A DNA stretch of 64,000 nucleotides from Patescibacteria group bacterium (GCA_038065515.1 JBBTQV010000016.1:5462-69461); one strand, 5' to 3'. Numbered from the stretch's first letter, positions 8,275 to 39,980 are shown. Numbers and translations: made by a program. Notes: generated by a model from the sequence alone, not told the origin.

Positions 8275-8991
8275 ATGCGCATCCAGAAATATATGTCCGA
8301 GCAAAGCATGGCATCCCGGCGTGAAGCCGAACGGCTTATCAAGCGAGGCCTGGTCTCGGTCAACGGCACGGTCGTGCGCGAAATGGGTGTACAAATCGAC
8401 CCCGCCAAAGATACGGTGGAAGTTCTTCCGTTCGCGAAGAAAGAAATGACCGCCAAACAAACCATTGCTCTCTACAAACCCCGCGGCATCGCGTCATCGC
8501 GAGTCCGTGCCGAGGGCACATCGGTGTACGATCTCTTCCCGAAATTTTCCGGCCTCGATATCGTCGGGCGGCTGGATAAAGCAAGTGAGGGCCTTCTGAT
8601 GCTGTCCGACGACGGCGTGATCGCCAAAGCCGTGACCGGTGCGGCGCATGTGGTGGAAAAAGAATACGAGGTTGCGGTGCGCGAAGAGGTCAATGCCGGT
8701 CGTTTGAAGATGTTAGAACCGGGCATTGAACTCGAAGACGGCATGACACTGCCGGCGAAAACGCACTTCATCAACAAGCATCTCTTCCGGATTGTCTTAC
8801 GCGAGGGGCGCAAGCATCAGATTCGGCGGATGTGTGAGTTCCTGCACCTCACCGTTGTGTACCTCAAGCGTCTCCGTATCGGTCCGGTCGTGTTGAGCGG
8901 TCTGAAGCCGGGCGAATACCGCCTGCTTACTCCGCAGGAGATAGCGCTGTTGAAACGGTCAGTTTCTAATTCGCCAAAACCCCGATCTTAA
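8275..8991 (+). CDS. rsuA: rRNA pseudouridine synthase, RsuA/RluB family (S4 domain + catalytic domain)
   Basis: S4 motif SRREAERLIKRGLVSVNG. Catalytic GRLDKASEGLLMLSDDG with Asp. KHQIRRM. Confidence 0.85.
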   Translation: MRIQKYMSEQSMASRREAERLIKRGLVSVNGTVVREMGVQIDPAKDTVEVLPFAKKEMTAKQTIALYKPRGIASSRVRAEGTSVYDLFPKFSGLDIVGRLDKASEGLLMLSDDGVIAKAVTGAAHVVEKEYEVAVREEVNAGRLKMLEPGIELEDGMTLPAKTHFINKHLFRIVLREGRKHQIRRMCEFLHLTVVYLKRLRIGPVVLSGLKPGEYRLLTPQEIALLKRSVSNSPKPRS

Positions 8992-22217: not shown

Positions 22218-23360
22218 TCAGTATACCACGGAGCGCAGTTGCTGCAGCGTCTGACGGGCAGTATCAGGCCATGAAAATCGCGTAACGCGTTCGTATCCTT
22301 TCGCAATCAGCCGCGACCGTAGCCCTGCGTCAAGCAACACCGCTTCTAATGCGGCGGTAATACCTTCAATACGGTACGGATCCACCAGAAGTCCTGCGTC
22401 TCCGATAACCTCCACAACCGATGATGTCGCGCCAGCCACAACCGGTGTCCCGCACGCCATAGCCTCCAACGGCGGGAATCCGAACCCTTCTAAAAGCGAT
22501 GGGTACGCCAGAACGGATGCCGCAGACAGTATCAGCGGCCGCTCCGCGCGGTCAATCCGGTCGAGAAACTTCACCATACCGGGAGTGCGTGTTGCACGGA
22601 TCGACCGCATCAACTCCTGCTCCATCCAACCGGACTGACCGGCGATAACCAGTTGCATATTCTGCATACCCTCTCTGCGCCGAAGCAGGTTCCACGCCGC
22701 CACGAGAGCGGGAAGATTTTTGCGCGGCTCGCGTGTTCCCAATGCCAGTATAAACGGCCCTTCGATGTCGTGCGATTCGCACCACTGCCGTATGACTTGC
22801 TCCGACGGACGGCGCAGCAGCGGATCCGTACCCGAATGCACGACGGCGATGCGTTCCGGTGCGATGCCGTACACACCGGTGAGGTCGTCGGCCGTCGACC
22901 GGGAAACCGCAATAATGCGGTCTGACGCCCGCACCTGCGCGCGCGGACGCATCTGAATGTCGTGCCAGCGGCGGCGGTGCCACGACAACAACTGCGGCAT
23001 GCGCTCGTACGAGAGGTCATGCCATGTCATCACTCGCCGACATGATGGTGAGAGTGCCCCCAGTAAGAAATGCGGAAAGAAAAACACATCGACGCCTCCG
23101 ATGATGGTATCCAGAAACGGACGCCCGGTGAGCCGCGTCCGCAACCACAGCGCGCGGTTGGACATGCCGGTTTCATACACTTTCACATTGGGCATCTCCA
23201 TCCATGACCGTCGCGTCAACGGCGCACGGCCGCTATAAAACAGTTTCCACTGCACAGCGAACTCCAACGGAATCATGTGCGCCAACAACTGTTCGGTATA
23301 TTCTTCAATACCGCTCGCGCGTCCGGTTCCCAACACCCTGATATCAACTCCAATCCTCAT
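22218..23360 (-). CDS. glycosyltransferase family 4 (GT-B, group 1)
   Basis: EGFGFPPLEAMACGTPVV (E-x7-E motif region). Confidence 0.8.
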   Translation of the reverse strand: MRIGVDIRVLGTGRASGIEEYTEQLLAHMIPLEFAVQWKLFYSGRAPLTRRSWMEMPNVKVYETGMSNRALWLRTRLTGRPFLDTIIGGVDVFFFPHFLLGALSPSCRRVMTWHDLSYERMPQLLSWHRRRWHDIQMRPRAQVRASDRIIAVSRSTADDLTGVYGIAPERIAVVHSGTDPLLRRPSEQVIRQWCESHDIEGPFILALGTREPRKNLPALVAAWNLLRRREGMQNMQLVIAGQSGWMEQELMRSIRATRTPGMVKFLDRIDRAERPLILSAASVLAYPSLLEGFGFPPLEAMACGTPVVAGATSSVVEVIGDAGLLVDPYRIEGITAALEAVLLDAGLRSRLIAKGYERVTRFSWPDTARQTLQQLRSVVY

Positions 23361-23983
23361 CTGTCAATGGGCACCATTGACAGATCGTCGGTGGCGCATT
23401 TATCTGATCGATACTCTTCAATAAATTTCGAGTATCCCGCTCGATCTGGGAACTGGCTAAGAATAATGTCTTTTTCACACCATTCGCCATTCCCCTCCCC
23501 AAAGTATTCCCCACAACTACTCCATTGATACGCTGCTGAATTTTTCACTAGACCATCCTTGCAGGGGTTATTATGTATATATGCCGAGAGATTTTTGAGA
23601 TATTGATTATCTCCGATATTTCTTTGCTTAAATTGGTCTTGGAATATGTGGCCGACTCTTTTGTGTTTCAGATTGAAATATTTTGAATAGCTTGTGCAAA
23701 TTCTCATCATGAGAACGCTCGTAGGAATTTCTTTGTTCTGTCCGATTAATAAGTGAAAATGATTCGGCATGAGACAATATGCGATAAGTGAAAATGCCCC
23801 CACCGGGAGCGAATGCATTCTCCGTGGTAATTTATTACGATCGGGATAAATATTCTGGACAAGTCGGAGTAAAAAGAATTGATAATCAGCGGAATCAAGA
23901 AAAATATCCTGCCTTGCGTTCCCCCGATTATAAATATGAAAATACCCACCCGGCACAGAATCTTTGTAGTCGCGATCATTCAT
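23357..23983 (-). CDS. IS200-like / REP-associated Y1 (HUH) tyrosine transposase
   Basis: YHIYNRGNARQDIF, HUH motif LMPNHFHLLI, catalytic Tyr region YIHNNPCKDGLV...YQWSS. Start likely MNDRDYK. AT-rich relative to flanks. Confidence 0.75.
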   Translation of the reverse strand: MNDRDYKDSVPGGYFHIYNRGNARQDIFLDSADYQFFLLRLVQNIYPDRNKLPRRMHSLPVGAFSLIAYCLMPNHFHLLIGQNKEIPTSVLMMRICTSYSKYFNLKHKRVGHIFQDQFKQRNIGDNQYLKNLSAYIHNNPCKDGLVKNSAAYQWSSCGEYFGEGNGEWCEKDIILSQFPDRAGYSKFIEEYRSDKCATDDLSMVPIDR

Positions 23984-24075
23984 ATGCCCGATACTAGAGT
24001 GTTTTCTGACGCTGTCAATGGTGCCCATTGCCATCTAGGGTAGCTCGTGGCTCATAACAGCGCTAATAGGCCATG

Positions 24076-25200: not shown

Positions 25201-25578
25201 CTAAATAGTTTTCTTCTTTTTGAGCGTCAAGATACTTGGACCCAATATGTTAGCAATTTCGGTAATTTCAGCGAGCAGGAGAGTTGCTTTTGATTCCGTA
25301 GCTTGCTTGGTGTCGCGTAACAATGCAAGCCAAAGTTTCGATTCATTCGCTGACTTCAGGGAATGGGTGAAGAAATTGATAAAATCCCGACGGGAGCTAG
25401 CCGCCGAAGCTTCGGTATAGTTGGCAATAATACTCGTTCCGCTTCTTAACAACTGCTTCCCCATAACATCGCCAGAAGTACCTTTTGGCAGATGCTCAAC
25501 AAAGCTCACGAGATTGAGAGTCCATTGATAGAGGCGTTTTTTGAACTCGTATTTGAATTTTGATGTGTCATTTTGCAT
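25201..25578 (-). CDS. four-helix-bundle protein (23S rRNA intervening-sequence protein / Avd family)
   Basis: 125 aa. LY.W......V..LPK and C-terminal ..LAEITEIANIL pattern typical of this family. AT-rich. Same family as DGR Avd, but no RT adjacent. Confidence 0.65.
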   Translation of the reverse strand: MQNDTSKFKYEFKKRLYQWTLNLVSFVEHLPKGTSGDVMGKQLLRSGTSIIANYTEASAASSRRDFINFFTHSLKSANESKLWLALLRDTKQATESKATLLLAEITEIANILGPSILTLKKKKTI

Positions 25579-33168: not shown

Positions 33169-34164
33169 TCATGCTTCATCGTAATACCCAAGTACTTTGA
33201 GCCCTGGTAGCTGTGTGCCCGCAAGAAATGCGAGCATCGCTCCCCCGCCGGTGGAAACAAATGTAAACTTCTCCAGCAGTCCGAGAACATCAACCGCAGA
33301 AATGGTATCACCGCCCCCGATAATCGACAATGCGCCGCTTGCGGCGATGGCACGGGCGATCGCTTCGGTTCCGGCCATGAATCGCGCATCCTCAAAACGC
33401 CCCATGGGCCCGTTCCAAATAATGAGCTTCGCTCCTTCCGCGAGCACCGTAAATGCCCGCGTCGTCTCGGGCCCGATGTCCCGTGCGTGGCCATCGTCCA
33501 TGATAAAATCCGTCGGCAAGTGCAGTCGTGAGTCTTGCGTATTGATATTTGTCATCCCTGCGAGAATCTCATTGGCAGCCACACCGCCGACGGCAACATG
33601 CTCTGCTCGTACGATAAGATGTTCGATGACCGGTATCTTCGTGCTCGCCTTGGCACCGCCGATGTAGACTACTTTCCCCTGCGCGGGTGCATTAATGGCT
33701 TTCACAAGCTGTCGGGTTTCTTCCTGTATCAGCAAGCCGGCATACGCGGGCAAGAGTTTTGCCGCCGCAACAACCGATGCATGCTCGCGATGGCACACCG
33801 CGAACGCACTATTTACATAGAGGTCGCATCCCGCGACCAGCTCGCGTGCAAACGATTCGTCGTTGGTTTCTTCTCCGGGATGCTGGCGCGTGTTCTCCAA
33901 CAGCACTACCTCATCCCCGAATGTAACGCCAAGCAATTGCTCCAATTGCGGTTTGAGCGGTTCAAAACTTGGCACCGCGGAGATGTGTGCCGCCAACACT
34001 ACATGCGCGCCGCGCGAAAGCAGATAGTCCAGCGTTGGCTTCTGCCGCACGATGCGATAGCGTTCGGCAATCGTGCCATCAGTATTCACAGGTACATCAA
34101 AATCCGCGCGCAGAAATACTTTCTTGCCGCGTATATTCCCTGCTTGGTCGAGTGTACGCATCAT
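33169..34164 (-). CDS. pgk: phosphoglycerate kinase (compact, 331 aa)
   Basis: VFLRADFDVP, LENTRQHPGEE, IIGGGDT, STGGGA. ATG overlaps the RT1 stop (ATGA). Confidence 0.9.
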   Translation of the reverse strand: MMRTLDQAGNIRGKKVFLRADFDVPVNTDGTIAERYRIVRQKPTLDYLLSRGAHVVLAAHISAVPSFEPLKPQLEQLLGVTFGDEVVLLENTRQHPGEETNDESFARELVAGCDLYVNSAFAVCHREHASVVAAAKLLPAYAGLLIQEETRQLVKAINAPAQGKVVYIGGAKASTKIPVIEHLIVRAEHVAVGGVAANEILAGMTNINTQDSRLHLPTDFIMDDGHARDIGPETTRAFTVLAEGAKLIIWNGPMGRFEDARFMAGTEAIARAIAASGALSIIGGGDTISAVDVLGLLEKFTFVSTGGGAMLAFLAGTQLPGLKVLGYYDEA

Positions 34165-35150
34165 ATGCTCTCTCGAATATTATAGGTATTTCCGTGTCCC
34201 AACAACCCCCGATATGACTGCCTTGTTGCTTCTACCGGACATTCCCGCAACCGTCTGAACATCCGGCGCTTTGTATTCATCCGCAGTACTCGGTGATCCG
34301 GGAAGTGCGCCCAGCCCAGGAAGTCGATGCCGGAAGCTAGAGTGCGGAGAGAAACCTTGTGTGGATGCAAATCGAGATGAAGTTTTTCCTGCAGAAAGTC
34401 GCCGATACGAGACAGGAGTTCCTGCAAATAAGACTTGTCGCCGTGCAGAATTGCAAAGTCGTCCGCGTAGCGGATGTAGTGTTTCACTTTGAGCGCGTGT
34501 TTCACCCACTGATCAAACTCGTTCATATAGATATTCACCATGAGCTGTGATGTCAGGTTGCCGAGAGGGAGGCCCGGGAAGAAGCTGGAAATAATGCGGG
34601 ACAGAAGCCAGAGGGTATCGGAGTCAGGAATGTGTTTAGCTATGATGTCGTTCAGAATGTCGTGGTCTATACTGGCAAAAAACTTGCGGATGTCGCACTG
34701 TAGCACCCAGCAGGTGCGGGTATGATTCTGGGAGACCCGGTACCCAAAGGCGCGAAACCGGTTTAGTGCACGATGCGTGCCTTTGCCCAGCTGACAGGAG
34801 AAGGAGTCGGCAATGAATTTCCTGCTGAAATAGTGACACAGCACCCGATGCACGGCGTGGTGCAGAAGGCGGTCCCGCACACTTGCTTTGTGGATACTCC
34901 GTGGCTTTGGGTCAGAAATGTTAAATGCTTCGTATGGTGAGTGGTGATATGTTTTTGCAATCAGATCGTTATGGAGCATAACAACATTATCCATTAGGTT
35001 GTGCTCAAAATCCTGCACATCTCTACGGGCCCGCTTGCCGCCCAAAAACTCCTTCCATGCTCCAAGGAGATTTTCCAAAGAAATGATATGCTGAAAGCCC
35101 TCATCAAGCTGAATATGACTCATTCGCCCAATAATACCCCCCCGGCTCAT
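34161..35150 (-). CDS. diversity-generating retroelement reverse transcriptase (DGR-1 RT)
   Basis: RT motifs: LPLGNLTSQLMVNIYMNEFD (DGR-specific SQ in motif 4) and YIRYADDFAIL (motif 5/C). A TR/VR pair is adjacent. True start may be the internal Met at 35123 (MSHIQLDEGF). Confidence 0.85.
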   Translation of the reverse strand: MSRGGIIGRMSHIQLDEGFQHIISLENLLGAWKEFLGGKRARRDVQDFEHNLMDNVVMLHNDLIAKTYHHSPYEAFNISDPKPRSIHKASVRDRLLHHAVHRVLCHYFSRKFIADSFSCQLGKGTHRALNRFRAFGYRVSQNHTRTCWVLQCDIRKFFASIDHDILNDIIAKHIPDSDTLWLLSRIISSFFPGLPLGNLTSQLMVNIYMNEFDQWVKHALKVKHYIRYADDFAILHGDKSYLQELLSRIGDFLQEKLHLDLHPHKVSLRTLASGIDFLGWAHFPDHRVLRMNTKRRMFRRLRECPVEATRQSYRGLLGHGNTYNIRESI

Positions 35151-35508
35151 TCCACTACTCCAAAGCGCAAAAAGCGCTTACGGACTTTGGTATAGCTATC
35201 TTCAGACACTCCCGAAAACCCATCGGCACTCCCTGGGCGTGAGGGTTGATGCGTTATTTATTGAAATCATTGAGACACTCGCAGTCGCGAGTTTTCTGGT
35301 GCGTGAAGAAAAAATCCCTTATGTGCGTATTGCTATCAGAAAAACGGATACCCTCAAAATACTACTGATGGTGCTCTGGGAAACAAAATCACTCGACGAT
35401 AAAAAGTACATCGCACTATCGCTCAAGATAGACGAGATTGGCAGGATGCTTGGCGGATGGAGCGGTCAACTTCAAAAACAAAACTCCCCCACGAAGGGAG
35501 AGAAATGA
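35115..35508 (+). CDS. avd: Avd-like four-helix-bundle protein (DGR-1 accessory variability determinant), N-terminal segment out of frame at a C7 tract
   Basis: ORF-track GTG 35239..35508. The same frame upstream (from 35119) encodes ...AYGLWYSYLQTLPKTHRHSLG, matching the Avd/IVS N-terminal helix, but has no start. ATG 35115 is in the -1-adjacent frame and is joined by deleting one C from the C7 run at 35137-35143. Opposite strand to the RT. Confidence 0.6.
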
Positions 35509-35515
35509 AGAGAGT

Positions 35516-35647
35516 TGCGCGGGGCCAAGAACACCCACCGATTGTCAGGGTACCAGGCATTGTCGGGCTTACCGTAGTTGCTGTTCAACCACCGGTCACT
35601 GCTGTCGTGTTCGACATTGAACACCTTCAGGTAGTCGTCCGAGTCCG
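35516..35647 (-). repeat. DGR-1 template repeat (TR1)
   Basis: 132 bp, near-identical to the target1 3' end. Differs at 14 positions, every one an adenine in TR (coding/minus strand). Lies inside the spurious ORF 35472..35768. Confidence 0.85.
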
Positions 35648-35883
35648 TGTATAAAGGATGCCGTCTATGCCACTGTCCCTCGAATGCTCTTGGGACTGTA
35701 TCGTATTCGGCATCATTAATGCCATAACATCCTTTACCAAGTATCTTCATTTTTTGAAGTTTCTGCATATGTCCTCCATCTCAAACCGTAATCGGAGATG
35801 TTCTCAACATACGGATACTGGATTCGGCAGCGGGAAACCGTAATCTCCCACATATTCGCCTAATACCAAAGTGAGTATACCAG

Positions 35884-35925
35884 AATAAAGAAAGTGGCCG
35901 TACACGCTTTCGCATGCACGGCCAC
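35884..35925 (-). terminator. rho-independent terminator after DGR-1 target gene
   Basis: gtggccgt...acggccac 8-bp stem followed (minus strand) by TTTCTTTATT. Confidence 0.5.
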
Positions 35926-35988
35926 CAGACGGGGCCGAAGGACTAAGGTTCAGAGGTCAGACAGACCAAAGAAACTAAGTGCCGAGGA

Positions 35989-36603
35989 CTAAGTCGTGCG
36001 CGGGGCCAAGAACACCCACCGACCGGCAGGGTACCAGGCATGGCCGGGCTCACCGTAGTAGCTGTACAACCACCGGCCACTGCCGACGTGTTCGACACTG
36101 AACACCTTCAGGTAGCCGCCCGAGTCCGCGAGGGGCTCCATGGCAATCAGGAGCCATTCTCCGGGGGGTTGATCAGGGTACTGCAGACGAAGCTGCGGAC
36201 CGACCTCGGCGGGACAGAGCCGGAGTCCCAACTCCAGAGCACGGGCGTAGATGGTATCGCGGCGAGCGGCCTGGGTGAAGCCCAGATCAGTGCCGGAGAC
36301 GATAACGAGATCGAGCTTGGTCTTCTTGGGGCTCATGCTGTTCTTGGCCAGGATCCGACCGGCGTAGTCGCTGATGCGGAAGCCCGCGGATACCAGCGAT
36401 GCGCGGAGCCCGTCCACGGTCTTGAAGGTACCAAGTGTGATGGTCTTCCAGACCGGGAACTGGGGCCAGGGGTCCTCCTTGCGGAGGAACCGCTTGAAGG
36501 CGGCGAACCACTGGGGACCTTCGGGTCCGGCGAGTTTCTCAAAAAATGCCTTGAACGGTCCGGCCGTCTCGGCCAGAGCGCTTGCGTCGAGCATGATGGA
36601 CAT
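35989..36603 (-). CDS. DGR-1 target protein (204 aa, no signal peptide) with C-terminal variable region
   Basis: C-terminus ...YLKVFSVEHVGSGRWLYSYYGEPGHAWYPAGRWVFLAPR is the VR counterpart of TR1 (N/D/K in TR become Y/G/H/E/A/V here). Confidence 0.75.
   Translation of the reverse strand: MSIMLDASALAETAGPFKAFFEKLAGPEGPQWFAAFKRFLRKEDPWPQFPVWKTITLGTFKTVDGLRASLVSAGFRISDYAGRILAKNSMSPKKTKLDLVIVSGTDLGFTQAARRDTIYARALELGLRLCPAEVGPQLRLQYPDQPPGEWLLIAMEPLADSGGYLKVFSVEHVGSGRWLYSYYGEPGHAWYPAGRWVFLAPRTT
35997..36128 (-). repeat. DGR-1 variable repeat (VR1) at 3' end of target gene
   Basis: Aligned base-by-base to TR1. All 14 mismatches correspond to TR adenines. GC-rich IMH-like end (GGCCCCGCGCA) shared with TR. 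Confidence 0.85.
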
Positions 36604-36672
36604 GGTCGACTCCTTTCAGAAAACGAGGAAAGTGGTTTTTAACGAGCGCAGGGACTGATGTCACCCTGTATT

Positions 36673-37530
36673 TTAATTACACTCCTGTCTTCCTGATTTG
36701 TCAATCCCCTGTATCTCATCTTCTGCAATCTCGCTTGCAATGGTGAGAATCCGCGCAAAATCTTCAGCGCGGACGGACGCCCCGCCGACGAGAACGCCGG
36801 AAATTTCGGAGCGTTGCAAAAACTCATGCGCATTGGCAGGCGTCACCGAACCGCCATAGAGAAAGGCGATGTGCGACACATCGAAATGATCGGCTAACGC
36901 TTCGCGGATGAGACTCATCGACTGCACGGCGCTGGCGGGCGTGTCGGGTTTGGCATCAGGGTTGGTGCTAATGGCCCACACCGGCTCGTACGCTATGATG
37001 CACTGCCCTACCTGTCCGGGCGTCAATCCGCGGAATGTCGCGGCGACCTGCGCTTTGAGCGCATCCTGCCAATCGCCCTCGCGAGCTTGCCCGCCGAAGC
37101 CTTGGCGTAGGCGGGTGCGCTCACCGACGCACACAATAGGCACCAATCCGTTGCGGAGCGCCGCCCGCAGTTTTTCGTTGACCATTTCGTCATCTTCATT
37201 GAGCTTGTAGCGCCGGTCACTGTGCCCAACAATCACATACCGCACGCCGAGTTTTGCCAGTTGCGGACCGCTCACCTCGCCCGTCTGTGCGACATCATCA
37301 CGCGCCGCAATATCCTGCGCACCCAACCGCGCTACATCGGCAAGCACGCCTTCGCCCAACATTGCGGCGACATCTTCCAGAAAAACAAACGGCGGACAGA
37401 ACACAATATCCAGCTGTTGCGCCCCTGCGCCCAGTCCGCGGACATGTTCGTCAATTTTCGCGACAATATCCTGCGCCTCGGCAAGAGTCTTCGGATTCAT
37501 CTTCCAATTCGCGATGATTAACTTTTTCAT
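36673..37530 (-). CDS. tpiA: triosephosphate isomerase
   Basis: IANWKMN, GHSDRR, IAYEPVWAIST, GGSV. ATG overlaps the RT2 stop (ATGA). Confidence 0.9.
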   Translation of the reverse strand: MKKLIIANWKMNPKTLAEAQDIVAKIDEHVRGLGAGAQQLDIVFCPPFVFLEDVAAMLGEGVLADVARLGAQDIAARDDVAQTGEVSGPQLAKLGVRYVIVGHSDRRYKLNEDDEMVNEKLRAALRNGLVPIVCVGERTRLRQGFGGQAREGDWQDALKAQVAATFRGLTPGQVGQCIIAYEPVWAISTNPDAKPDTPASAVQSMSLIREALADHFDVSHIAFLYGGSVTPANAHEFLQRSEISGVLVGGASVRAEDFARILTIASEIAEDEIQGIDKSGRQECN

Positions 37531-38561
37531 GTGGAATAGAGCCACGCAACATTGCGCAATTCCTGTTCTATCTTATACGCATTCCCGTGGCCGAGCAATC
37601 CGAGATAGGACTGGAGCGTAGTCTGGACTGGCCTCTTTACGATGTTACGGAACGCTCGTCGTTTCGTTACTGTTCGCAGAACTTTGTGGGTTGGAAAATA
37701 GGACCATCCAAGAAAGTCGACACCGGATGCCAATGTCTTGAGCGCAATCTTCCGAGGATGCAAGTGCAACAACAAATAGCATTGCAGGAAGTCGCTTACG
37801 CATGGAACGAGCGAGACCAGAAAAACTCTGTTGGGATGCAGTATGACAAAATCATCTGCGTAGCGGATATAGTGAGGCAAACCCATCCGGTTCTTCATGA
37901 AGCAATCCAGCTCATTCATATAGATATTGGCCAGTAGTTGCGATGTCAGATTACCCAACGGCAAACCCCTACCAGGGCTTGCATGGAAACTGCTGATGAC
38001 TTCTTGAAGAAGCCTCATAACCAAAGCATCTGAAATCGTCCGCGCAAGAATGGCCGATAGTCTGACATGGTCGATGCTGGCAAAGAATTTTCGGATGTCA
38101 CACTTCAACACCCAGCAGGTCCGAGTATTGTTTTCGCTTGTCTTGTTGATGAAAGAACGGAATCGCGCTCCGGCTGCATGAATCCCCTTGTCTACCCGAC
38201 AAGAAAATGAATCGGAAATGAATAGATGGTCAAAGATTGGATATAACACTCGATGGATTGCGTGATGGAGCAAACGGTCGCGAACTGTTGCCTTATGGAT
38301 ATGGCGCGGCTTGGGATCGCAAATATGAAAGCTGTGATACGGACCATGCCGATACGCTCCATTGGCAAGCTCGTCGTGCAGGTATAGGATGTTGTCCATC
38401 AGTTCCCGCTCGAATTCTTGGACATCAACCTTGTCCCGCTTGCCAGACACGAACTCTTGCCATGCGAGCAGAAGATTTTCCAGAGAAATTATTTCCTCAA
38501 ACATACAAAAACCTATATGACCCCCCCCCCAACAAGACTTACCGATACTGCAAAAGGCCAC
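37527..38561 (-). CDS. diversity-generating retroelement reverse transcriptase (DGR-2 RT), paralogue of RT1
   Basis: LPLGNLTSQLLANIYMNELD and YIRYADDFVIL. Roughly 60% identical to RT1 by eye. True start probably MFEEIISLE at 38504. Confidence 0.85.
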   Translation of the reverse strand: MAFCSIGKSCWGGGHIGFCMFEEIISLENLLLAWQEFVSGKRDKVDVQEFERELMDNILYLHDELANGAYRHGPYHSFHICDPKPRHIHKATVRDRLLHHAIHRVLYPIFDHLFISDSFSCRVDKGIHAAGARFRSFINKTSENNTRTCWVLKCDIRKFFASIDHVRLSAILARTISDALVMRLLQEVISSFHASPGRGLPLGNLTSQLLANIYMNELDCFMKNRMGLPHYIRYADDFVILHPNRVFLVSLVPCVSDFLQCYLLLHLHPRKIALKTLASGVDFLGWSYFPTHKVLRTVTKRRAFRNIVKRPVQTTLQSYLGLLGHGNAYKIEQELRNVAWLYST

Positions 38562-38874
38562 CGCCGCATACCTGCTCTGGCATGAGTGTCTTCCCCGTTT
38601 ACCGCGATTGACTCGGTTTACCCTCGGCTCAAAAATAGATCGACTCTATCTCGAGACTATCGAATACATGCTCATCGCCGGATATACCGCCCGCGAACGA
38701 AAGCTCGTTATCGTTCAACAAGCAAGCGCCAAACTCGATACGCTCAAGTTTTTCTTGAAAATCGCCTGGCAGGCAAAAGCGCTGTCTCCAAAAAAGTATG
38801 CGGAGCTGTCAGCGCCAGTCGCCGAGATTGGTAAGATGCTCGGCGGCTGGCATAAACAGTTGACCAGCGAATAG
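38517..38874 (+). CDS. avd: Avd-like four-helix-bundle protein (DGR-2), N-terminus out of frame at a C10 tract
   Basis: ORF-track TTG 38608..38874. Same frame upstream from 38521 encodes PPPQQDLPILQKATAAYLLWHECLPRLPRL, homologous to the Avd1 N-terminal region. ATG 38517 is joined if the C10 run (38521-38530) were C9. Confidence 0.6.
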
Positions 38875-39335: not shown

Positions 39336-39980
39336 TTACTTGCGGACTGCGGCGAAACGGTAGTTCTCGAACCACTCGCTGTCGAACCAGTACAGGTTCA
39401 GGTAGCGTACACGGTCGTACCGGTCCAGATACGCCACATAGCGGTCGTCATGGACCTTGGCCACGGTGCCCAGCGCAACGATGGGAAACTCCAACTGGAG
39501 ACCCGAGTGTTGGATGCCGATCCAGAGCAACTCCAAGAAGGTGGCCGGACGCAGACCTTGGCGGTCCATGTCAGCGATGACCTCGTCCGAGGTCATCCGC
39601 TTGTTGTAGTGGAGCAGATGGACTTCGGCGGTACGGGTGCCGTCTCCGGTACCGAAACTGAAATGCTTGACGATGTTGGAGTTGACCCAGTCGTACTTGC
39701 CGTCGGCGATGAGCTGGACCGTTGTCTTGGTCAGATCCATCATCACGGAGATGGTGCGGTCGAGGAACTCGATGGCGGTACGCTTGGTACCGACGATGAG
39801 TTGGGCAATTTTGCCGCGCAAGTCCTTGCTCGTGAGGATTCGCTCCAGGTCGGCGTCGTTGCCACCCAGCGCGAGCACCGCATCCACGAGGGCCTTGAAC
39901 ACCTCGAACGCCTTACCCCAACCCTTGAGAAACTCACTCTTCTGACGAGCCATAGCTCGCCTCCTTCGTTTGTGGCTCAT
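39336..39980 (-). CDS. DGR-2 target protein (214 aa, no signal peptide) with C-terminal variable region
   Basis: C-terminus VAKVHDDRYVAYLDRYDRVRYLNLYWFDSEWFENYRFAAVRK versus TR-encoded VAKVNDNRNVAYLNRNDHERNLNLNWFDNEWNENYRFAAVRK. Confidence 0.75.
   Translation of the reverse strand: MSHKRRRRAMARQKSEFLKGWGKAFEVFKALVDAVLALGGNDADLERILTSKDLRGKIAQLIVGTKRTAIEFLDRTISVMMDLTKTTVQLIADGKYDWVNSNIVKHFSFGTGDGTRTAEVHLLHYNKRMTSDEVIADMDRQGLRPATFLELLWIGIQHSGLQLEFPIVALGTVAKVHDDRYVAYLDRYDRVRYLNLYWFDSEWFENYRFAAVRK
39338..39464 (-). repeat. DGR-2 variable repeat (VR2)
   Basis: All 12 mismatches to TR2 are at TR adenine positions. Ends at the target stop codon. Confidence 0.85.

Follow-up and report, generated by a model that had tools for sequence, protein, structure and literature searches.

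A pair of diversity-generating retroelements at the stop/start overlaps of a galT-tpiA-pgk operon in a Patescibacteria group bacterium

Results

Two retroelement cassettes among galT, tpiA and pgk

The 64,000-nucleotide stretch analysed here (GCA_038065515.1, JBBTQV010000016.1:5462-69461; the window, from whose first letter positions are counted) belongs to an 85-kb Hainich groundwater contig of a Patescibacteria group bacterium and carries two diversity-generating retroelements (DGRs), the reverse transcriptase (RT) genes of which end on the start codons of the glycolytic genes pgk and tpiA. The minus strand reads GT2, galT, target2, a hairpin, template repeat (TR) 2, RT2, tpiA, target1, a hairpin, TR1, RT1, pgk, an exonuclease gene (exo) and an RNase H gene (rnh). 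Pfam searches of the window proteins returned RVT_1 twice, PGK, TIM, bAvd twice, RNase_T and RNase_H. Loci used for comparison carry numbers of our own with the prefix L.

Both cassettes are true DGRs, of the type usual in the candidate phyla radiation (CPR). RT1 and RT2 match RVT_1 (E=3e-21 and 5e-20), and the presence of LGNLTSQ and YADD in each marks them as DGR-type RTs. TR1 (35647-35516, minus strand) differs from its variable repeat VR1 (36128-35997, inside target1) at 14 positions and TR2 (39005-38875, compared over 39001-38875) from VR2 (39464-39338, inside target2) at 12, and every one of these mismatches, 14/14 and 12/12, falls on a TR adenine. The VRs end 6-8 nt ahead of the target stop codons with the hairpins beyond, so that both targets are of the kind with a C-terminal VR; further remote targets of TR1 or TR2 were not found within the window.

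The DGR2 target gene (target2, 39336..39953) encodes 205 aa from an ATG preceded by a Shine-Dalgarno sequence and has no Pfam domain. Just 3' of it lies a GC-rich hairpin of 14 bp with a T-run (39278-39248), which could serve as the target-site hairpin of the DGR, as an intrinsic terminator or in both roles, and right after the hairpin, upstream of TR2, a candidate -10 box TATACT (39234-39229). RT2 occupies 37527..38561 with the conserved start probably at the ATG at 38504 and the stop TGA at 37529-37527. In DGR1, target1 (35989..36603, 204 aa) is preceded by a promoter region with TTGACA at 36704-36699 and TGTAAT at 36681-36676, and followed by a 15 bp GC-rich hairpin with a GAAA loop and a T-run (35926-35893) and by an extended -10 box, TGG TATACT, at 35882-35874. 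RT1 (34161..35150) probably starts at the ATG at 35123 and stops at the TGA at 34163-34161.

The two avd genes lie on the plus strand, each antisense to its TR and RT: avd1 at 35115..35508 (ATG 35115; called open reading frame (ORF) 35239-35508) and avd2 at 38517..38874 (ATG 38517; called ORF 38608-38874). Their bAvd domains are present, yet in the consensus sequence a poly-C tract shifts both by 1 nt from the frame of their own ATG. Read in order, each cassette thus consists of a promoter, a target gene bearing the VR at its C-terminal end, a hairpin, the TR, an avd in antisense and the RT, and the opposite-strand avd between TR and RT places both in architecture B3. Among 80 related RT loci, fetched with an RT1/RT2 profile, avd was divergent from the RT wherever upstream DNA was included. 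The initial annotation had described the whole region as co-directional, which does not hold for avd1 and avd2.

A further hairpin (ACAGGG..loop..CCCTGCG) was observed at the 5' end of the target-gene transcripts, directly after the strong promoter: in the 5' untranslated region (5'-UTR) of target1 at ~36668-36649 and ahead of target2 at ~40047-40031, as well as in two relatives described below, L004 (~8480-8505), where the stem shows a compensatory change (CAAGG...CCTTG), and L166 (~8840-8865). A search against Rfam gave no match for this hairpin. No known RNA family was found in the cassettes; the search of the window returned RNase P and four tRNAs, all elsewhere.

Both RT genes end in ATGA overlaps

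RT1 ends ...AGC ATA TGA and shares an ATGA at 34164-34161 of the minus strand with the start of pgk (33169..34164; ATG 34164-34162), in which a second ATG immediately follows the first. RT2 ends ...TCC ACA TGA and shares the ATGA at 37530-37527 with the start of tpiA (36673..37530; ATG 37530-37528; MKKLIIANWKMN). Both junctions, confirmed here as first annotated, have the overlap of a translationally coupled gene pair. Overlaps of 4 nt were present in 6 of the 43 co-directional neighbour pairs called on this genome, two of them being the RT junctions themselves, which leaves a background of 4/41 (~10%); overlaps of any length numbered 10/43. By chance alone, two specified junctions would both be ATGA in about 1% of cases. 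The ATGA context is built into tpiA and pgk because their second codon begins with A (ATG AAA for tpiA; ATG ATG or ATG AAT for pgk), and given a TGA that already exists on the start codon only the RT reading frame must fit; selection of a new coupling device need not be postulated. An alternative genetic code with TGA as a sense codon was rejected: under table 11 the long ORFs remain unbroken, and the genes downstream lie in other frames.

The overlaps are older than the retroelements

Closer relatives were found through tpiA, and percentages given for them are tpiA identities to the window unless stated otherwise. Four lineages without DGRs, L169/L170 (86%), L171/L172 (80%), L176/L177 (77%) and L174/L175 (73%), have the order GT2-galT-tpiA-pgk with 4-nt overlaps at both junctions, reading ...AAAGC ATGA AGAAG at galT/tpiA and ...CACGC ATGA ATACG at tpiA/pgk, and the C-termini of galT and tpiA are conserved among them. 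Both ATGA overlaps are therefore ancestral. The proposal that tpiA and pgk are normally neighbours, interrupted here by DGR cassettes, is borne out by these relatives, in which the two genes are contiguous and even overlap. The same relatives speak against selection as the origin of the precise overlaps, for the identical ATGA stands on the tpiA and pgk starts where no DGR is present and galT and tpiA are the upstream genes; overlaps of this kind in relatives lacking DGRs had been named with the initial annotation as refuting it. Nor does the local order correspond to the gap-pgk-tpiA order that had been presumed: tpiA comes before pgk, galT lies ahead and no gap gene adjoins, the order typical of the lineage being GT2-galT-tpiA-pgk-exo-rnh. 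More distant Patescibacteria keep GT2-galT-x-tpiA-pgk, and most other bacteria in the neighbourhood comparison have pgk followed by tpiA.

In the window, the ancestral upstream members of the operon are GT2 (41918-41196, minus strand) and galT (41191-40169), the stop of which overlaps the tpiA ATG in the DGR-free relatives, and the ancestral members after pgk are a DEDDh exonuclease gene (33165-32569) and the RNase H gene (32576-32130). An accessory role of exo and rnhA in the DGR, suggested by an RNase H beside an RT, was rejected, as both genes follow pgk in DGR-free relatives too. The C-terminus of tpiA in the window is ~16-26 aa longer than in relatives and the extension runs into the promoter region of target1. 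The PGK of the window has 331 aa against ~390-400 in canonical PGK and its Pfam match is split in two; the PGK of relatives is likewise short (331-361 aa), which points to lineage-wide reduction and not to damage caused by the DGR.

The two cassettes occur independently of each other. L173 (89%) has galT-ATGA-tpiA followed by a target1 that is 98% identical, and thus carries DGR1 without DGR2. L166/167/168 (99%) have an intact DGR2 with RT2-ATGA-tpiA; their tpiA-pgk gap holds a different target-like gene of 227 aa, no TR, no avd and an RT1 stump of 105 codons. The stump (L166 9829-10146; GCA_964360775.1) is in frame, joins an N-terminal fragment to the last ~85 residues, and ends in the same ...GAGAGAGCAT ATGA TGCGT junction with pgk, with the TATAAT of RT1 described below retained.

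The independent occurrence bears on the idea that an [RT-glycolytic gene] module was duplicated to give two alike junctions. A duplication would fit the ATGA geometry and the cassette order that the two places share, but RT1 and RT2 are only 59% identical with unlike C-terminal tails, avd1 and avd2 are 44% identical, target1 and target2 are unrelated in sequence, there is no homology between pgk and tpiA, either cassette occurs alone in relatives, and the tpiA-pgk adjacency is ancestral. Such a duplication can be given next to no credence.

L004, the nearest species representative in GTDB (galT 77%, tpiA 62% and pgk 55% identical), carries, in this order, GT2-galT, an ORF resembling a target gene and accompanied by a hairpin, tpiA-ATGA-pgk and rnh, and neither RT nor avd. 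The orphan target-like gene between galT and tpiA (L004 8566-9132) has a VR-like C-terminus, the target-type 5'-UTR hairpin and a hairpin terminator, and its match to target2 is weak and VR-like (E=0.05); it could be what is left of a DGR2-like cassette, or a target diversified in trans. Together with the decay that evidently occurs in L166, this gene lends something to the converse history, in which DGRs were ancestral at both sites and were precisely deleted in the relatives that now lack them. That history is nevertheless quite improbable, for all four DGR-free lineages show a perfect galT-ATGA-tpiA-ATGA-pgk with conserved C-termini, the sole case of decay observed, L166, is messy, and tpiA lies beside pgk in more distant Patescibacteria as well.

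Related reverse transcriptases precede many housekeeping genes

Among related RTs (43-69% identical) a co-directional housekeeping gene within 60 nt downstream or overlapping was typical. Thirty downstream genes were typed by Pfam and fell into more than 20 families. Within ≤60 nt or overlapping were genes for a methyltransferase, GT2, adenylate kinase, TatD, DUF4012, an M50 protease, an FAD oxidase, PAP2, PheS, a 2-hydroxyacid dehydrogenase, DnaE, iPGM, a Mur ligase, YqeY, Fur, signal peptidase, RNase H, H+-PPase and FtsA; PGK, AlaRS, S1, PPDK, MurB and others lay at larger distances. This variety shows that the link of the RT is not specific to glycolysis. Two glycolytic genes follow RTs here, and pgk (L102), iPGM (L133) and PPDK (L148) do so elsewhere, which might be taken to mean that mutagenic retrohoming is functionally linked to glycolysis, for instance by a DGR tuned to carbon flux through shared expression. 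Most downstream genes are however not glycolytic (TatD, PheS, AlaRS, Mur ligases, FtsA, Fur, signal peptidase, RNase H and ribosomal proteins among them) and CPR genomes largely consist of such housekeeping genes, so that we regard a functional link as highly improbable.

The RT overlapped the next gene in ~7 of ~48 distinct loci, by ATGA in L121, L125, L136 and L157 and by 11 nt in L116, L134 and L135. The RT tail after the GHGN motif ranged from ~5 to 36 aa, which indicates that the RT ORF can readily end at whatever stop comes next.

Cassettes were also seen at differing junctions of the dprA / GT2-galT-tpiA-pgk-exo-rnh neighbourhood in other loci (L145, L102, L157, L111/L113, L154 and L091): the RT is followed by GT2-galT in L145 and by pgk in L102, overlaps rnh as RT-ATGA-rnh in L157 and lies beside dprA in L111/L113. 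This neighbourhood may be a recurrent landing zone of DGRs.

Candidate promoters and terminators and possible coupling of expression

The hairpin with T-run and the -10-like box that follow each target gene make the region look like several transcription units, and not the one extended cluster first described. These putative units would be target2; TR2 to RT2 and tpiA; target1; and TR1 to RT1, pgk, exo and rnh; with avd transcribed the opposite way. Neither RT junction has a usable Shine-Dalgarno sequence, the duplexes with the anti-Shine-Dalgarno being weak (-1.5 and -4.1 kcal/mol). Shine-Dalgarno sequences were rare genome-wide, strong ones occurring only at the target genes and a few small ORFs.

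A two-hexamer sigma-70 scan of the RT 3' ends found no promoter. Since that scan needs a -35 hexamer and the promoters of this genome appear to be mostly -10-only, enrichment of the -10 element was tested instead, over the genes of the whole window and of two further contigs of the same genome (L164 and L165). A TATAAT-like hexamer was present 4-15 nt before the start of 15 of 55 genes (27%) compared with 2.6% of random positions (p ~1e-11), which suggests that transcription with a short leader or none is widespread, from promoters lying within the 3' ends of the genes upstream. At 34184-34179, 14 nt ahead of the pgk ATG, stands a perfect TATAAT, one of 16 in 128 kb counting both strands, formed by Tyr-Asn codons among the last codons of RT1. 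It is missing from the DGR-free relatives, and pgk thus probably has an internal promoter supplied by RT1. For tpiA there was no -10-like box within 15 nt of the start and the nearest, TATAAG, lies 41 nt upstream, so that tpiA, which has no recognisable promoter of its own, probably relies on transcription and perhaps translation from RT2. An internal promoter ahead of the two glycolytic genes, the other refuting observation named with the initial annotation, was thus found as a candidate for pgk, with nothing comparable for tpiA.

The annotation had gone further, proposing that expression of both enzymes is coupled to the RTs and that this protects the retroelements from loss. Put at its strongest, the precise overlaps would have been selected because translation of tpiA and pgk needs ribosomes terminating at the RT ends, and the retroelement would be hard to lose in the manner of an addiction. 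Both junctions without a Shine-Dalgarno sequence, a tpiA without a close -10-like box, two ATGA junctions of two against the ~10% background, and the L166 RT1, which despite deletion of its catalytic core keeps an in-frame ORF ending on the pgk ATGA, are all compatible with this. On the other side, the ATGAs are older than the DGRs, the genome rarely uses Shine-Dalgarno sequences anyway, pgk itself is among the 27% of genes with a close -10 box, and the frequency of RT overlaps among related loci does not exceed the genome background. L166 moreover lost TR, avd and RT function while the junction stayed, so the element itself is not protected; any protection would extend to no more than the final few hundred bases of the RT. 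Selected overlaps of this kind are thus unlikely as the explanation, and L166 weakens the case for a stabilising effect. Dependence of tpiA expression on RT2 is probable. For pgk, the junction kept by the L166 stump would fit a constraint there, and the candidate internal promoter speaks against coupling.

Recent activity of DGR2 and mosaicism around DGR1

The window and L166, from genomes of different Hainich wells, are 99.1% identical over 7.4 kb. No difference was found in ~2.8 kb comprising galT, the VR-TR spacer, TR2, avd2 and RT2. VR2 itself (L166 6530-6656) showed 13 differences in 127 nt, all 13 at positions templated by TR2 adenines. Differences confined to VR2 and to such positions show that DGR2 was mutagenic very recently. 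The avd2 gene is out of frame in both assemblies despite this recent diversification of VR2.

Identity to L166 falls to 88.7% over the RT1 3' end, pgk, exo and rnh (34437-32083 against L166 9870-12242) and is 98% beyond. The target1 of L173 (2232-2639) is 98% identical to that of the window though its tpiA is only 89% identical. These identities make the region a recombination mosaic with the DGR1 cassette at its centre, which suggests that this cassette has been exchanged between strains.

A hypermutable repeat at the 5' end of avd

Where avd and RT begin in opposite directions, a poly-G tract, poly-C on the avd strand, is found between their starts; it is 7 nt long in DGR1 (35137-35143, after the ATG at 35115) and 10 nt long in DGR2 (38521-38530, after the ATG at 38517). 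A tract of G6 to G14 was found at the matching place in 58 of 72 related loci (L084-L163 set), and other loci carry (GA)11-13, (CTGG)11 or (TGATTGC)8 instead; database Avd homologues show HTHTHT at the position of the tract, implying (AC)n. The repeat thus lies inside the 5' coding region, and the length of its unit is never a multiple of 3 nt. The frame of the avd body was open back to the tract in each of the 48 tract-bearing loci. The ATG was in frame with the body in 10 loci, off by one in ~25 and off by two in ~13, and ~60 of 110 database Avd homologues were called with a truncated N-terminus. Natural in-frame alleles encode an Avd of 117-143 aa in which the tract gives Pro-Pro(-Pro) just ahead of helix 1.

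Deletion of a single C restores a full-length Avd from both avd genes of the window (ATGs 35115 and 38517). The Pfam matches of the restored proteins then cover profile positions 14-104 and 12-106, including the N-terminal helix, and rise from 25 to 39 bits and from 51 to 60 bits. The protein collection yielded no exact ON allele of either avd gene from this species. The tract was the only indel between near-identical contigs, with (GA)12 and (GA)11 in L111/L113 and G10 in L136 against G9 in L138/L140, so that it varies in length between alleles of differing frame, as in contingency genes. The assembly of L167 breaks exactly at the RT2/avd2 homopolymer (position 1-55) and its contig opens with a long artificial poly-C; the break fits assembly trouble or heterogeneity in tract length.

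The avd repeat looks like a contingency locus, with putative phase variation of a DGR accessory protein; programmed slippage or frameshifting is the alternative. Either way the repeat would control Avd and possibly also the promoter or N-terminus of the RT. A literature search returned no paper linking DGRs with such repeats, the main paper on CPR DGRs (Paul et al. 2017, Nat Microbiol 2:17045) being outside its reach.

Other genes of the window

Outside the cassettes, a free-standing gene for a four-helix-bundle protein resembling 23S_rRNA_IVP/Avd lies amid glycosyltransferase genes at 25201-25578 (minus strand), next to a gene for an IS200-type Y1 transposase (23357-24034, minus strand), the stop of which overlaps the following GT4 gene by ATGA.

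Discussion

The apparent fusion of RT genes to glycolytic genes is probably inherited operon punctuation together with survivorship after insertion of DGRs into an older galT-tpiA-pgk operon. This explanation builds on the anatomy of the locus, the ancestral ATGA overlaps, the independent presence and absence of both cassettes and the generic arrangement of RT followed by a housekeeping gene, all of which are observed. The initial annotation as a whole is partly supported, and the feature that it described is an ordinary pair of CPR DGRs.

The order of events that we infer starts from an operon GT2-galT-tpiA-pgk-(exo)-rnh with galT/tpiA and tpiA/pgk each overlapping as ATGA. Two CPR-type cassettes would have been acquired independently, one at each stop/start junction, these being the only positions in a gap-free operon at which an insertion does not break a gene. 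The upstream genes would thereby have gained new stops, galT a TAG (GTA TAG instead of GTA TGA) and tpiA one within the cassette into which it reads, while the RT, as the last gene of the cassette, would run into the pre-existing TGA within the ATG-A of tpiA (ATG AAA) or pgk (ATG ATG). Insertions that left tpiA and pgk expressed would have persisted. Past each target terminator, transcription is predicted to restart at the -10 box before the TR and/or before the RT and to proceed through the RT into the housekeeping gene. Expression of tpiA would probably depend on read-through from RT2 with reinitiation at the overlap, and pgk would have the TATAAT of RT1 in addition; expression of both genes has thus probably been rewired onto promoters borne by the cassettes.

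Several points weigh against this explanation. No convincing target-site duplications were found at the cassette borders and no clear recombinase was seen for the insertion. Gain rather than precise loss is argued from parsimony over ~10 relatives, and promoters, read-through and reinitiation are all read from sequence. Both of two RT junctions are exact ATGA, somewhat above the ~1/3 per junction expected for a random RT frame, and some, modest selection for translation running into start codons without a Shine-Dalgarno sequence may have acted.

A wider possibility, which we put forward as speculative and rather unlikely, is that DGR cassettes of this Patescibacteria clade are operon-invading modules which enter at the stop/start overlaps of essential gene strings. 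The RT would assume the role of the displaced gene by supplying a promoter and terminating ribosomes, its 3' end would become indispensable and outlive the element, with the L166 stump as a fossil, and mutagenesis would be switchable through the hypermutable avd repeat and not through transcription.

The finding is chiefly a caution: in compact CPR genomes a 4-nt overlap of a retroelement gene with a housekeeping gene is not enough to infer that the two are functionally fused, and here the overlap is older than the retroelement. The value of the locus lies in its natural series of five operon states (no DGR; DGR1 only; DGR2 with a decayed DGR1; both; an orphan target), which show the entry and erosion of cassettes in an essential operon. 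The avd repeat is the item most worth following up; if its switching is true, the mutagenic machinery would itself be phase-variable, which could matter more than the operon finding.

The locus can be set beside several known systems. In the bacterial glycolytic operon gap-pgk-tpiA, pgk and tpiA are neighbours as in the ancestral arrangement here, but here tpiA precedes pgk, GT2-galT comes before and exo/rnh after, and no gap gene is adjacent. Translational coupling through an overlapping stop and start (ATGA or TGATG) is known from trpE-trpD and trpB-trpA of E. coli. The RT junctions resemble these pairs in the 4-nt ATGA overlap and in having no Shine-Dalgarno sequence before the downstream start; they differ in that the upstream partner is a retroelement gene replacing galT or tpiA, that the coupling is putative, and that the many leaderless-type promoters of this genome could make coupling dispensable. 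Like the simple-sequence-repeat contingency loci of Neisseria, Haemophilus and Campylobacter (PMC5084427, PMC8355987), the avd repeat lies in the 5' coding region, has a unit length that 3 does not divide, varies in length among near-identical genomes and is represented by alleles in all three frames. It is distinguished from them by its CPR host, by a putative switching and by the gene affected, which encodes the accessory protein of a mutagenic retroelement and not a surface structure.

The prototype DGR of Bordetella phage BPP-1 (mtd-avd-TR-brt) shares the adenine-specific transfer from TR to VR, the Avd accessory and an initiation of mutagenic homing (IMH) sequence followed by a hairpin, and differs in carrying avd ahead of TR in the same orientation, in residing on a phage and in having no host housekeeping genes after its RT. 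The closest likeness is to the CPR DGRs of architecture B3, TR-(avd)-RT, which make up 90% of CPR DGRs (Wu et al. 2018, PMC5758913) and alongside which we name 'DGR clade 2' of Roux et al. 2021 (PMC8144416). Common to these and the present cassettes are a target without known domains and with a C-terminal VR, a GC-rich hairpin after the VR, an avd on the reverse strand, an RT with LGxxSQ and YADD motifs, a chromosomal location and a groundwater CPR host. Nothing essential differs; what the window adds is two tandem cassettes at two stop/start overlaps of one housekeeping operon.

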